Counted from the stretch's first letter, positions 49,632-63,849 are shown. The stretch is 64,000 nt of DNA from Alphaproteobacteria bacterium (GCA_965220745.1 CBDCQT010000010.1:288001-352000); one strand, 5' to 3'. A program made the numbers and translations. The notes: generated by a model not told the origin, from the sequence alone.

Positions 49632-50768
49632 TCAGCCTAAAGTCACCGGCTGGCGCTTTCTGCCCCAGCGGCCGGGCGGGCCGTCAAAGACCCCGGCGGT
49701 GGGGGTGCCGCAGACGGTGCAGGCGCCGCGTTCGTCCAGCCGCCACTCGGAGAGCTCGTACCAGTCGCGACCGATGGTGCGCGTGCCGCAGACATGGCAA
49801 TAGGTCGATTGCCGACCAAGGTCGTGGACGTTGCCGGTATAGGCGTAGCGCACGCCGTTGCGCAGCGCGACGCGACGCGCCATCGCCAGGGTCTCGAACG
49901 GGGTGCGCGGCTTGTCGAGCATCCGATAGTCGGGGTGAAAGGCGCTGAAGTGCATGGGCACGTCGGGGCCGAGATTGTCCACCACCCAGGCGCACATGGC
50001 ATCAATCTCGCCCTCGCTGTCGTTCTCGCCGGGGATGACCAGGGTGGTGATCTCGAACCAGACGTCGGACTCGTGCTTGAGATAGAGCAGCGTGTCCAGA
50101 ACCGGCTGCAGGTGGCCCTTGGTGATGGACCAGTAGAAGTGCTCGGTGAACGCCTTGAGGTCGACGTTGGCGGCGTCGATGCCGCGAAAGAAATCCGCGC
50201 GTGCCCGATCGGTGAGGTAGCCGGCCGTCACCGCGACGGTCTTCACGCCGCGCTCGCGGCAGGCCTCGGCGATATCGGCAGCGTACTCGTGAAAGATCAC
50301 CGGGTCGTTGTAGGTGAAGGCGACGGAGCGGCAGCCCAGCCGCTCGGCCGCCGCCGCAATGGCCTCGGGCTGAGCCTCGTCCTGCACCCGGTCCATGTCG
50401 CGGCTCTTGGAGATGTCGTGGTTCTGGCAGAAGTTGCAGGCGAGGTTGCAGCCAGCGGTGCCGAAGGAGAGCACCGGCGTGCCGGGCAGGAAGTGGTTGA
50501 GCGGCTTCTTTTCGATGGGATCTATGCAGAAGCCCGAGGAGCGGCCGTAGGTGGTGAGGACGATGCGGTCGCCCTCGCGGGCGCGGACGAAGCAGAGGCC
50601 GCGCGCGCCCTCCTTGAGCGTGCAGAGCCTGGGGCACATCTCGCACTGCACGCGGCCGTCCGCCAGCATCGACCAGTGCTCGGTCGGCACGATCGGGCCC
50701 CGTCCGCGGATTGCCGGCGGGCGGGTCTCATGCAGCATCGGGGGAGCAAGGCCATCCGCCACGGCCAT
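49632..50768 (-). CDS. amrS: AmmeMemoRadiSam system radical SAM enzyme
   Basis: CEMCPRLC, DPIEKKPLNHF.PG, GCNLACNFCQN, AFHPD; ATG at 50768 after GGAGG. Confidence 0.92.
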   Translation of the reverse strand: MAVADGLAPPMLHETRPPAIRGRGPIVPTEHWSMLADGRVQCEMCPRLCTLKEGARGLCFVRAREGDRIVLTTYGRSSGFCIDPIEKKPLNHFLPGTPVLSFGTAGCNLACNFCQNHDISKSRDMDRVQDEAQPEAIAAAAERLGCRSVAFTYNDPVIFHEYAADIAEACRERGVKTVAVTAGYLTDRARADFFRGIDAANVDLKAFTEHFYWSITKGHLQPVLDTLLYLKHESDVWFEITTLVIPGENDSEGEIDAMCAWVVDNLGPDVPMHFSAFHPDYRMLDKPRTPFETLAMARRVALRNGVRYAYTGNVHDLGRQSTYCHVCGTRTIGRDWYELSEWRLDERGACTVCGTPTAGVFDGPPGRWGRKRQPVTLG

Positions 50769-51107
50769 GGGCGCCTCCACGCCACGCAAGAGTGTGATAC
50801 GGGAGGAGACCGGGGGCACACAAGCGCCGACTGTCGCTGCCCTGACACTGCCGGGGCCGTGGTCACGCTCCCCGTCCGCGATCAGCGATACTTATGGAGC
50901 AGCCAAGAAATCGATATTGGAGTTGATGGCGGTGTTGGCTATACGATTCCAACATAGGAGATCGACTCGAGGGGAGGAAGCGCGATCGAATAGGGCTTAG
51001 AAATCGGTACAAATGCCTGAAACAAGTCGGAAATTTGGCATCACCGACTTGTGCTGAAATGGATGCAAGTGCTGCGTCAATGATGCTGTTTATCGGGGCT
51101 TGTTTGC

Positions 51108-52665
51108 ATGGGCGCTTACGACATCAGCGACGGAGTTGCAATCACCGGGTATGGCTACCGGTTGCCCGGCGGCATTCACTCGGACTCTGATTTCTGGCGC
51201 CTGCTCGCCGAGCGCGAGATCGTCCAGGAGCCGATCACCGATCGCTACGGCAAGGGTCATCTGCCCATCGGTGAATTCTCGGGCCCGGGGCGCCTCGCGA
51301 GCCCTTACGAGGGGCTGATCCGAGACGAAGAGGAGTTGCTCTTCGACCGGACCTTCTTCGGCATGTCCCACAACGAGCTGCGGCAGACCGAGCCGCAGGT
51401 CAGGATGCTGCTGAATTGCGCGTGGGAGGCCATCGAGCACGCCGGCTGGGATCTTCACTCCTTGCGCAACAGCCCCACCGGAGTCTTCATCGGCTCTCAG
51501 GTTCCGGCCGTGTCCAACTGGCGGCCGCAGCATGGCGTCACGGAGAATTCCGTCTCCGGCATCAGCCTCGCGATGCTGGCCAATCGGGTCTCCTACCACT
51601 TCAACCTCATGGGATCGTCCGCGACCTATTGCACGGCGTGCTCCGCCGGCGTGAGCGCCCTGCACGCGGCGATGAACTCGCTGGCGTGCGGCGATTGCGA
51701 CCAGGCGCTGGTCGGCGCCGTCACCTATCTCGGCAGCGCCAGGATGAGCAGCGGCTTCAACCTCATGGGGGTCATCAGCCCGGAGGGCAAGTGCCATTCC
51801 TTCGATGCCGAAGCCAACGGCTACATGCGCTCCGAAGGCTCGTTCGTCTTTGCCATCAAGCCCCTGGCGGCGGCCGAGCGGGACGGAGACCCGATCTATG
51901 CCGTGATCGAGGCGACCGCGGTCAACGCGGCAGGGACGGCCGACGGTACCCAGGGTCTCGCGCCGGGCCGGTTCATCAGCGCACCCACCCACCACGGCCA
52001 GGTGGCGCTGATGCAGGAGGCCTCGGCTCGCGCCGGCCTCGCTCCTCTCGACTTTGACTACATCGAGGCGCATGCGACCGGGACCGCTGTCGGCGATCCC
52101 ATCGAAGGCAACGCCATCGCGGAGGCGTTCGGCGGCGTCGAGCGCGAGGTCCCGCTGCGGGTTTCCAGCGTGAAGAGCAACGTGGGACACATGGAGGCTG
52201 CCGCTTTCCACTGTGCCCTGCTCAAGGTCGTTCTGATGATGCAGCGGCGCACCTTCGCGCCAACATCGAGCAACTTCCAGGTGCCCAATCCGGAGATCGA
52301 CTTCGATTCCTGCCCCATGCAAGTGCAGACGGAATGCGAGTCGTTCCCCGACCATCCCGTGGTCGTCGGGATCAACTCGTTCGGCTTCGGCGGCGCCAAC
52401 GGCCACTGCGTGGTGCGCGAGTACCGGCCGGCATTGTCCAAGCTCTGGTCGGTGCCGCTGGCGCCGCAAGCGGGCTTCATGGTCCCGCTCTCGGCACGCA
52501 CGCCCAAGGCGTTGACCGAGAGCGCGCGCCGGCTGCGCCATCTGCTCGACGAGCAGCCGATGGACCTTTACGCGCTGGCTGGCAATCTCAGCCGCCGCCG
52601 CACCCATTTCGCCGCACGGACCGCGTTCGCGGCGCGCAGTCTGCCCGAGCTGACCAAGGCGCTAG
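51108..52665 (+). pseudogene. Type I PKS/FAS (SwfA-like), KS domain; 5' part of IS-interrupted gene
   Basis: CTACS, EAHATGT, KSNVGH, NSFGFGGANGH; frame runs into the IS and stops at 52697. Confidence 0.9.
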
Positions 52666-62350: not shown

Positions 62351-62424
62351 CTCTGCCGCTACCGCTCAACTAACATGAGTAATGGACTACCTCACGTGAC
62401 CGGGCCTGTGTGGGCAGGGGGCAC

Positions 62425-63849
62425 ATGACAGACCGTCTCGATCATGCTCCGGCCAACACTTCCGCCGCGGGATTTGCGACCGTGCGACCGCCGGAGGTGG
62501 CGGGCGCCTTCTACCCGGCCGATCCCGGCGCATGCGCCGATCTGGTGACGCGCTGCCTCGATGGCGCCCGACCGGCGCCACCGGGCGAGCCCAAGGTGAT
62601 CGTGGTTCCTCACGCCGGCCACGTGTATTCCGGCCCCATCGCCGGCACCGCATACGCGCCCCTCGCGAAACGGAGCGACCGCATCACGCGCGTCGTGATG
62701 CTGGGGCCCGCGCATCGCGTGGGCTTCGCCGGCGTGGCGACCGCCGCCGCCCACGCCTGGGCCTCGCCGCTCGGCACCGTCCCGGTCGACTGGCCGGCGA
62801 TGAAGCCCCTGCTTTCGCGGCCTGGCTTTCGCGTTGCCGATGCCGCTTTCGAGCGGGAGCACTGCCTGGAGGTGCAGCTCCCCTTCCTGCAGCGGGTACT
62901 GGATGATGTTGCGATCGTGCCGGTCCTCGTGGGCGACGCGAGCCAAGACGAAGTGGCTGAGATACTGAAGGCGCTCTGGGGTGGGCCGGAAACGCTGATC
63001 CTGATTTCCACGGACCTCTCGCACTTCCACGACTACGACGCGGCAAGACGGCTCGATGGCGAGACCACGAGACGGATCGAGCTCATGCAGCCGAAGGAGA
63101 TCGACGGCGAGCGCGCCTGCGGCTACCGGGGGCTCGGCGGCGCGCTCAAGCGTGCACAGGAACTCGATCTGCGGGTCACGGCGCTGGATGTCCGCAATTC
63201 CGGAGACACGAGCGGGACCAAGGACCGCGTGGTGGGCTACGGCGCCTTCGCGATGGAATACGCCGAGTCCGCCCGGCTCTCGGACGACGACCGGGATCGG
63301 CTTCTCGACGCCGCGCGGGCCTCGCTCGCTTTCGGGGTGGAGAACGGCCAGCCGAAGGCCGCGACTCTCGACGCCGACCTGTCGCCGGCGCTCAGGGCGA
63401 TGCGAGCCTCATTCATCACGCTCAGGGTCGCGGGCGAGCTCAGGGGCTGCTGCGGTACGATCGCCGCGCGAGAGCCGCTGCTGCTTGATGTCGCCGCCAA
63501 CGCCTATAAGGCCGGCTTCGAAGACCCGCGCTTCGGTCCGATGACGGCGGCGGAGCTTGGCGGAATCGATGTCAGCATCTCGGTGCTTTCGACTCCGCGC
63601 CCGATCCGCTTCGCCGATGAGGCCGACCTACTGCGCCAGATCAGGCCGGACCACGATGGCCTAGTCCTGGAGGACGGCGACCACCGCGGCGTGTTCCTGC
63701 CCAGCGTCTGGGAGCGCTTTCCGGTCGCCGCACAGTTCGTTGACCAGCTCAAGCGCAAGGCCGAAGTCGCGCCCGACCACTGGTCTCAGAGCTTGCGCGT
63801 TTCCCGTTTCACCGCAGAAAGTTTTGGCGGGCCTTTCCGCGCGGGCTGA
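62425..63849 (+). CDS. amrB: AmmeMemoRadiSam protein B (Memo-like) fused to protein A (AMMECR1)
   Basis: VRPPEVAGAFYP, PHAG.VYSG, EHCLEVQLPF, STDLSHF, VVGYGA; then LRGCCG, DPRF, GVFLPSVW. Confidence 0.92.
   Translation: MTDRLDHAPANTSAAGFATVRPPEVAGAFYPADPGACADLVTRCLDGARPAPPGEPKVIVVPHAGHVYSGPIAGTAYAPLAKRSDRITRVVMLGPAHRVGFAGVATAAAHAWASPLGTVPVDWPAMKPLLSRPGFRVADAAFEREHCLEVQLPFLQRVLDDVAIVPVLVGDASQDEVAEILKALWGGPETLILISTDLSHFHDYDAARRLDGETTRRIELMQPKEIDGERACGYRGLGGALKRAQELDLRVTALDVRNSGDTSGTKDRVVGYGAFAMEYAESARLSDDDRDRLLDAARASLAFGVENGQPKAATLDADLSPALRAMRASFITLRVAGELRGCCGTIAAREPLLLDVAANAYKAGFEDPRFGPMTAAELGGIDVSISVLSTPRPIRFADEADLLRQIRPDHDGLVLEDGDHRGVFLPSVWERFPVAAQFVDQLKRKAEVAPDHWSQSLRVSRFTAESFGGPFRAG

Follow-up and report, generated by a model that had tools for sequence, protein, structure and literature searches.

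The swf polyketide synthase cassette between divergent AmmeMemoRadiSam genes of an alphaproteobacterium: a probable chimera of two unrelated modules

Why does a polyketide synthase (PKS) cassette of the kind known from sponge symbionts sit inside the AmmeMemoRadiSam locus of an alphaproteobacterium? In the window studied here, i.e., a 64-kb stretch of the genome G000 (G000:C10:288001-352000), the genes swfA and swfB lie between amrS, which encodes the radical S-adenosylmethionine (SAM) enzyme of the system, and amrBA, which encodes its Memo and AMMECR1 components. Two answers had been offered from the sequence alone, namely an insertion at the amrB start marked by a 9-bp repeat (GGGGGCACA), or a recruitment of the Amr proteins as tailoring enzymes. 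Based on the comparison with related genomes, we consider it very probable that two unrelated modules were joined into a chimera in this interval by one old insertion-replacement event. That is, the locus shows ordinary genome plasticity around a known and widely exchanged PKS module of sponge symbionts. This reading counters the inference that the AMMECR1/Memo/radical SAM system is a PKS tailoring set, and it removes the supposed insertion footprint.

We searched 61 genomes with AmrS and SwfB, comprising 20 of the same genus as well as family, order and class relatives. The loci found were fetched (except those of G040 and G043 and the fragmentary amrS hits in G026 and G034), and the window's proteins and DNA were mapped onto them. 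A locus is called filled if the swf cassette lies between amrS and amrBA, and empty if amrS and amrBA occur without a PKS between them. The features of the interval are listed below, with profile scores and cut-offs in bits.

49632-50819, minus strand: amrS, AmmeMemoRadiSam radical SAM enzyme (TIGR04337 635, cut-off 220; Radical_SAM Pfam match)
50769-50879, no strand: native amrS/amrBA intergenic DNA, of which the left half is kept (alignable with the empty sites in G010, G018 and G019)
50812-50820, plus strand: left copy of GGGGGCACA, in the native amrS leader/promoter region and not at the insertion break
50870-51107, plus strand: leader/promoter region travelling with swfA (homologous upstream of swfA in three unrelated contexts, i.e., in G009, G019 and G020, from about CCGTCCGCGATCAGCG on)
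51108-52665, plus strand: 5' part of swfA with the ketosynthase (KS) domain and the linker between it and the acyltransferase (AT) domain (ketoacyl-synt, Ketoacyl-synt_C and KAsynt_C_assoc matches)
52666-54278, minus strand: IS1380-family insertion sequence (IS) of 1613 bp (transposase at 52816-54156, minus strand; NF033539 416, cut-off 180; PF13701 549)
54279-59792, plus strand: 3' part of swfA with AT, dehydratase (DH), enoylreductase (ER), ketoreductase (KR) and acyl carrier protein (ACP) domains (Acyl_transf_1, PKS_DH_N/PS-DH, ADH_zinc_N, KR and PP-binding matches)
59855-62350, plus strand: swfB, thioester reductase and sulfotransferase (R-ST; NAD_binding_4 165, Sulfotransfer_3 127, also TIGR01746)
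62346-62446, plus strand: right-junction segment (right copy of the 9-mer at 62417-62425, a G-run usable as ribosome-binding site, ATG at 62425)
62425-63849, plus strand: fused amrB-amrA with Memo and AMMECR1 domains (open reading frame (ORF) 62410-63849, 479 aa; TIGR04336 246.5, cut-off 26; TIGR04335 171.4, cut-off 99)

Filled and empty amr loci

All three signature components of the AmmeMemoRadiSam system (TIGR04335, TIGR04336, TIGR04337) thus score above their cut-offs in the window. In nine relatives the components are adjacent, with the radical SAM gene and the Memo-AMMECR1 gene as immediate divergent neighbours, while in the filled lineage this pair is split by 11.5 kb of foreign DNA, in the window swf and IS DNA. 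The direct divergent arrangement without a PKS was found in 9/9 non-filled amrS loci fetched, three of which belong to the same genus (G018, G019, G010) and six to other genera or families (G058, G032, G029, G047, G042, G039). We therefore take the adjacency to be ancestral and the PKS to be the insertion. Filled loci are present in five species of one genus (G000, G006, G011, G008, G015) and show the same left and right junction sequences; for G015, the filled state is deduced across a contig break inside swfA. Since both the junctions and an otherwise unique right segment (see below) are shared, the data point to one founding insertion.

The breakpoints were mapped from both sides. On the left, filled genomes match the empty sites from amrS to about 50879, and the match to the swfA leaders in three other contexts (G009, G019, G020) starts at about 50868-50876. 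Here, about 10 bp in CTCCCCGTCCGC (50868-50879) are similar to the empty site as well as to the left end of the cassette. These alignments place the left break at about 50870-50880 (within about 50868-50882), with the left 9-mer about 60 bp further left. At the other end, the match to cassettes in other contexts breaks off at 62345, within the last codons of swfB, which puts the right break at 62345/62346. Given this position, the last swfB codons and the stop codon would stem from flanking DNA; the SwfB C-terminus reads GIV (stop) here vs. GIDLS (stop) in the other contexts. Only from about 62447 on are the empty sites matched again. The right-junction segment in between (62346-62446) was found only in filled genomes (blastn-short, 199 loci and the own genome), and when compared with the native right half of the empty sites, 0/8 pairs reached p<0.05 (best 66/1000; empty-empty control 0/1000).

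At the mapped breaks of the cassette (about 50870-50880 and 62345/6) neither a target duplication nor a terminal repeat was found. No integrase or transposase belongs to the cassette either, the sole transposase being that of the IS1380-family element inside swfA. From the idea that the cassette was inserted at the amrB start without a mobility gene of its own, the insertion and the lack of a mobility gene hence remain, while the proposed mechanism via the 9-mer does not.

We propose the following course of events. A swfA-swfB cassette of about 9.85 kb with its own leader of about 230 bp would have entered the divergent promoter region of amrS/amrBA (about 130-190 bp), such that the cassette extends from 50870/80 to 62345, minus the later IS. 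About 100 bp of unrelated DNA would have arrived at its right end, and the junctions would best fit illegitimate or short-homology recombination, which they resemble. The filled arrangement would then have been inherited by five species, and recombination with other swf alleles would later have exchanged some of the cassette, mainly swfB and the 3' part of swfA. In this lineage, either module has suffered damage or loss: swfA of G000 carries the IS, Memo is deleted in G008, and the whole amr(+swf) block is missing in G009, G005 and G013.

The insertion left traces in the amr genes. The divergent orientation of amrS on the left of the cassette (minus strand) is confirmed. Its ORF as listed comprises 395 aa; judged from the sequence, the true start is probably the ATG at 50768, which is preceded by GGAGG, and this Shine-Dalgarno-ATG arrangement near 50768 is kept in both filled and empty relatives. 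On the other side, an amrB-amrA pair had been described 74 bp past the R-ST gene. The distance is correct for the ATG at 62425, which lies 74 bp after the swfB stop, but AmrB and AmrA are fused here in one 479-aa protein and thus form one ORF rather than two genes. The ancestral amrBA start codon (62455-62457) is an ATG in G006, G011, G008, G015, G010, G018 and G019 and reads AAC in G000, such that the G000 gene must start 10 codons upstream, at the ATG 62425 or the GTG 62410. 

Regarding transcription, the cassette would bring its own promoter and leader with conserved hairpins, while amrBA would have lost its proximal native upstream DNA and now depend for its expression either on the 62346-62424 segment or on read-through from swfB. 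We consider amrBA probably read through from the swf operon, because no terminator-like site was found between swfB and amrBA (scan of the 62346-62446 segment) and the gap is 59-74 bp. A sigma-70 consensus scan of both junctions gave no promoter-like site, the consensus being uninformative for an alphaproteobacterium. Pieces from the RNA-labelled public runs X19 and X20 on swfA, swfB and amrS are short, show 90-95% likeness and derive from relatives, such that they cannot show transcription, strand or co-transcription for the G000 organism.

The swfA leader may be a regulatory leader. Within it (window 51015-51095) we observed a 9-bp inverted repeat, ACAAGTCGG...CCGACTTGT, which is kept by paired changes in G019 (CCAGTCGG...CCGACTGG). 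A small terminator-like hairpin is found at 51074-51086, just before the swfA start codon, and the swfA and amrS leaders gave no Rfam match (50600-51300, E up to 1).

History of the filled arrangement

Next to a single founding insertion, the filled state may have multiple origins, i.e., independent entries at the same spot or a spread of the filled allele via the amrS/amrBA flanks. We assessed this based on a DNA tree of rpoB (21 genomes), which contains the filled genomes within a well supported clade (100/100). Here, the filled G015 is sister to two groups, namely the empty G010 with G005 and G013, and the filled G000, G011, G006 and G008 with G009 and G001.

Several observations count against a single insertion followed by simple descent. 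The empty G010 is nested among filled genomes on this single-gene tree, where 41% of the G010 columns are filled. To account for the pattern, a single gain would have to be supplemented by allele exchange or a second gain, or the rpoB tree would have to depart from the history of the locus. Furthermore, the cassettes of the amr locus do not form one clade for the AT-ACP part of swfA: G015 groups with G019, G020 and the first cassette copy of G018 (G018a), i.e., with cassettes from other contexts, and an approximately unbiased (AU) test, run after the tree was seen, rejects a single AT-ACP clade (p = 4.8e-82). Finally, the right-junction segment of about 100 bp matches no source among the searched loci or in the own genome. 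Multiple origins would also be in line with the wide exchange of the cassette, near-relatives of which are found in metagenome-assembled genomes (MAGs) labelled Gammaproteobacteria, Paracoccaceae and Arenicellales.

On the other side stand the left junction and the otherwise unique right segment, both of which are shared by the five filled genomes, as well as the divergence across the cassette. Synonymous divergence (dS) between G000 and G015 is 0.31 for amrS and 0.34 for amrBA, 0.38 for KS, 0.45-0.53 for AT-ACP of swfA and 0.63 for swfB. Between G000 and G008, the respective values are 0.34 for amrS, 0.40 for amrBA (159 retained codons only), 0.36 for KS, 0.32 for AT-ACP and 0.70 for swfB. 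Sliding identity agrees with this uneven dS across the cassette. The KS values of 0.36-0.38 fit the 0.31-0.34 found in the flanks, in line with a shared ancestry of the part next to the junction. We read the AT-ACP discordance as later recombination, although independent insertions at one site may have contributed; overall, we regard multiple origins of the filled state as rather unlikely.

The empty site of G010 carries a deletion of its own of about 62 bp. Beyond the left break it keeps native bases (GGGAGTGC) that are missing in the filled genomes, such that it is not simply a filled allele minus the cassette. Losses are also found elsewhere in the genus. In G009, G005 and G013, everything from amrS through amrBA is missing (about 48770/49582 to 63885), and G014 retains only a 3' stump of amrS. 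In G008 (L063:14843-15448), an in-frame deletion has removed the Memo domain, which leaves a 201-aa protein of N-terminal leader and AMMECR1.

With regard to selection, dN/dS is 0.06-0.12 for amrS, 0.13-0.18 for swfA and 0.16-0.27 for swfB. Both modules thus appear from their substitution patterns to be maintained genes. For amrBA, filled-filled pairs give a dN/dS of about 0.30, as against 0.31 for the empty-empty pair. Since the constraint on amrBA is unchanged by the insertion, there is no sign of a new role.

The swf cassette and the Amr proteins

The swf cluster of sponge symbionts as described by Della Sala et al. 2013 (PMC3908369) starts with swfA, which encodes one KS-AT-DH-ER-KR-ACP module, followed by swfB with thioester-reductase and sulfotransferase domains. 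The window shares this module order and the directly following swfB (62 bp after swfA), and the domain order of its single type I module is complete. The nearest relatives of the cassette are likewise MAGs titled as typical sponge-associated groups. An alkyl sulfate as swf product is a proposal of the same description (PMC3908369). In accordance, the iterative synthase should make a saturated acyl chain, which SwfB should reduce and sulfate to an alkyl sulfate. No thioesterase (TE) domain was found in a Pfam search of the window proteins. CurM-type systems pair a sulfotransferase with a thioesterase, yielding a terminal alkene. Such CurM / olefin-synthase type PKS termini with a sulfotransferase were reportedly described by Gu et al. 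in 2009. In both cases a sulfotransferase would act on a PKS/FAS (fatty acid synthase) product, but in the window the sulfotransferase and a thioester reductase form one fusion protein separate from the PKS, and this suggests an alkyl sulfate.

The PKS does not form one continuous gene here. All domains of swfA are present, but the gene is split between KS and AT by the IS1380-family element, which had been overlooked. The target duplication of the element is the 4-bp CTAG at 52662-52665 and 54279-54282; duplications of 4-5 bp are typical of the IS1380 family. With its DDE transposase, its length of about 1.6 kb, this duplication and imperfect terminal inverted repeats (52662-52681 paired with 54263-54282, CTAG included), the element resembles the family without any unusual trait. 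The truncated 5' ORF of swfA (51108-52697) ends in a 10-residue tail derived from the IS, with the stop at 52697. The swfA frame ends with ...LPELTKAL before the IS and begins with LDTFVEEEAP...FAGQGTQW after it, in register, such that the two halves are in frame after removal of the IS and one CTAG.

G006, which is the closest relative, has an intact swfA in one ORF of 2355 aa, and the IS is absent from swfA of G006, G011 and G008. Further copies of the IS are found in G000, one 100% identical (C13:836237-837849) and four at 92%. We also compared public sequencing runs as Logan contigs, in which lack of cover carries no meaning; contigs of the runs X5 and X20 connect the sequences on either side of the IS. 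Taken together, these comparisons identify the IS as a recent, secondary hit within the cassette and not as the cassette's vehicle. Because the synthase gene is split, the swf pathway is most likely off in G000, and the IS, which may be polar, probably disturbs transcription into swfB and amrBA as well. A probably dead swf copy matters for mining this MAG for the swf product.

Within the genus, the cassette occurs in at least five contexts.

Context 1: the amr locus (G000, G006, G011, G008, G015)
Context 2: a site matching G000 C11:311.2-311.6k (G019, G020)
Context 3: a site matching C13:102.6k (G018, first copy, G018a)
Context 4: a site matching C10:676k (G009, G005)
Context 5: directly downstream of a resistance-nodulation-division (RND) pump (G018, second copy, G018b; G002)

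For a species-wide scan, one genome per species was screened with an alignment of 12 SwfB proteins, which gave 149 pattern matches and 106 relatives, the best 80 of which were kept. The scan is not exhaustive, since G002, G005, G008, G009 and G020 were not returned. The best 80 of the 106 relatives come from MAGs titled Alpha- and Gammaproteobacteria, Nitrospirales, Acidobacteria, Gemmatimonadota, Spirochaetia, Rhodothermaceae and Saprospiraceae. That is, swfA-swfB behaves as a promoter-carrying module without mobility genes, which is found at no fewer than five places in one genus, recombines between alleles and occurs in MAGs of many phyla.

Whether the Amr proteins take part in the pathway was assessed starting from SwfC. 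It was noted before that described swf clusters include the radical SAM gene swfC and that it is absent downstream here. There is indeed no swfC within the window's cassette, but a homologue is encoded elsewhere on the same contig, about 440 kb away (C10:789406-791148; L164:5407-7149). This orphan encodes 580 aa with B12-binding, Radical_SAM and DUF4070 domains, is 73% identical to a cluster-linked swfC and is flanked by unrelated genes, i.e., an AraC/DJ-1 regulator and an amidase. In the close relatives L087, L088, L094 and L097, swfC follows directly after swfB in convergent orientation, and a swfC-like match lies within 10 kb in 47 of the best 80 (of 106) swfB loci. The SwfC described there is a radical SAM protein of 585 aa whose N-terminal part holds a B12-binding domain, and one fosmid of that study, pPSA11D7, has no adjoining swfC either (PMC3908369). 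The G000 arrangement differs from that description (PMC3908369) in the placement of the gene pair between amrS and amrBA, in the IS within swfA and in the remote swfC.

AmrS itself does not qualify as a counterpart of SwfC. SwfC from locus L117 (580 aa) holds B12-binding, Radical_SAM and DUF4070 domains, while AmrS shows Radical_SAM and Fer4_12 only and thus lacks both the B12-binding and the DUF4070 domain; BLASTP of AmrS vs. SwfC gave E = 0.5. Since SwfC is unrelated to AmrS and swfC is present elsewhere in G000, AmrS is no stand-in for a lost SwfC.

One can still ask if AmrS and AmrB-AmrA serve as tailoring or accessory enzymes of swf, with AmrS replacing SwfC and the linkage kept by selection. 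In favour of this, the linkage persists in five species, no swfC lies beside the cassette here, the missing terminator between swfB and amrBA makes co-transcription plausible, and all four genes are under purifying selection in the filled lineage. However, the two modules occur without each other. Among the 61 genomes, full-length swfB without any amrS is found in 4 (G005, G009, G020, G002) and full-length amrS without swfB in 8 (G058, G032, G029, G047, G042, G039, G040, G043), while in G018 (about 257 kb apart) and G019 both are present but unlinked. An amr gene lies within 10 kb in only 3 of the best 80 (of 106) swfB loci, i.e., in G011, G006 and G015, all of this genus. The linkage is therefore limited to a sub-lineage of one genus, although it is not confined to this genome, which had been named beforehand as the observation that would refute recruitment. 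In addition, SwfC is unlike AmrS and G000 has its own swfC, G008 lost the Memo domain, G000 carries the IS in swfA, and dN/dS of amrBA is the same in filled and empty pairs. The recruitment of the Amr proteins is not strictly refuted by these data, but they make it quite improbable.

A related view holds that the insertion, in which DNA from the cassette side took the place of the proximal promoter and start of amrBA, rewired amrBA to the control of the swf operon and that the Amr proteins are made and act together with a sulfated-lipid pathway. If true, this would allow, e.g., for envelope or host-interface remodelling in a sponge symbiont and provide a first handle on the role of AmmeMemoRadiSam, but we deem it improbable. 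The term AMMECR1 and the term Memo have 0 occurrences in the available text of PMC3908369. A literature search, in which subscription journals were not covered, turned up no paper linking swf and amr and no functional study of the AmmeMemoRadiSam system, the term being used only in passing in the material accessible to it.

Some genes recur beside swf cassettes. G000 encodes an HlyD-type adaptor and an AcrB-family RND transporter at C12:764483-768833 (L165:2484-6833). In three of the five contexts, a homologous pair directly adjoins the cassette (G002, G005, G009 and both copies in G018), which is not the case in G000. This pair is a candidate exporter of the swf product. A 387-aa ORF of G000 without Pfam match (C13:302504-303667; L163:2005-3168) has homologues (81-85% nt identity over about 765 bp) directly upstream of swfA in L085, L086, L090 and L097 and after swfC in L088, which marks it as a recurrent companion of the swf cluster. 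A role of this 765-bp gene beside swfA as phosphopantetheinyl transferase was considered and rejected given that the G000 homologue has no Pfam match. The C11 site that holds the cassette in G019 and G020 is occupied in G000 (C11:311190-311585) by about 370 bp with a small reverse-strand ORF, which resembles a ribbon-helix-helix antitoxin by eye only, no family search having been made.

The 9-bp repeat and neighbouring changes

It remains to consider the 9-mer, which was proposed as the target-site duplication of a mobile segment (50821-62425) inserted in a site-specific or transposition-like manner. The window holds just two copies of GGGGGCACA, precisely where they had been reported (50812-50820 and 62417-62425), and base 62425 is indeed the A of the ATG. 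Two exact copies thus flank the cassette, and both are conserved in G006, G011 and G015. But the repeat does not exceed chance. For the window, 0.78 occurrences of the 9-mer are expected, and at least two copies were found in 21/100 shuffles. An exact 9-mer is common to 1394/20000 random pairs of 110-bp windows (about 7%) and to 1150/20000 shuffles of the two junction windows. A longer repeat that includes the 9-mers was rejected, since the best local alignment of the junction windows was not above chance (matched by 876/2000 shuffles and 1243/1980 random real windows).

The position of the copies does not fit an insertion footprint either. The stretch 50821-50879 is native amr DNA common to the empty sites and not cassette DNA, such that the breaks are not at the repeat. 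At the left position, the empty sites hold degenerate copies only, i.e., GGCGGTTCA in G010, GCAGGCACA in G018 and GCATGCACA in G019, about 60 bp from the break, and none is found before the amrBA ATG. In the filled G008, the counterparts read GGGAGCACA and GGGGGCACG. The 9-mer is also absent from 7 loci where swf landed elsewhere (L065-L070, L074).

Removal of the interval was predicted to restore GGGAGGAGACCGGGGGCAC-ATG, and a lack of this junction in PKS-free relatives had been named beforehand as the refuting observation. The relatives do show amrS and amrBA adjacent in 9 PKS-free loci, but the junction with a single 9-mer is absent: allowing up to 4 substitutions, 0 matches were found in 199 loci and the own genome. 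The two copies of GGGGGCACA are thus a coincidence, and an insertion via the repeat is highly improbable. Under the insertion-replacement model, the right copy would be nothing but the G-rich ribosome-binding stretch and the ATG of the 10-codon N-terminal extension of AmrBA.

An assembly or binning artefact, i.e., a PKS wrongly joined to the amr genes, has a virtually negligible probability: G000 is a MAG-type assembly (13 contigs, 5.18% contamination), but four other assemblies show this gene order, in G011 on a contig of 4.17 Mb, and short-read contigs of run X1, which may stem from the source sample, bridge both junctions with 0 differences (50148-51383 and 62098-63936).

Two further stretches to the left of amrS vary among the relatives. 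A two-gene insert at 45229-47504 shows a low GC content (0.52-0.54; background 0.65-0.69). One of the two genes encodes an AAA_21/AAA_15 ATPase of 569 aa with matches to the PADLOC candidate-defence models PDC-M07A (4e-63), HEC-01A and AriA, while the other is a 189-aa ORF without match. At this spot, G006, G008, G014 and G005 lack the sequence between about 45.4/45.7k and 47.5k. Between the Fe-alcohol dehydrogenase gene and amrS, 880 bp (48750-49628) hold two small ORFs, one of which has a weak acetyltransferase-like match (mycothiol synthase family, E 1.6e-4). This stretch is present in G000, G011, G015, G019 and G013 and absent in G006 and G008, a distribution that marks it as another indel in an often-changing locus.

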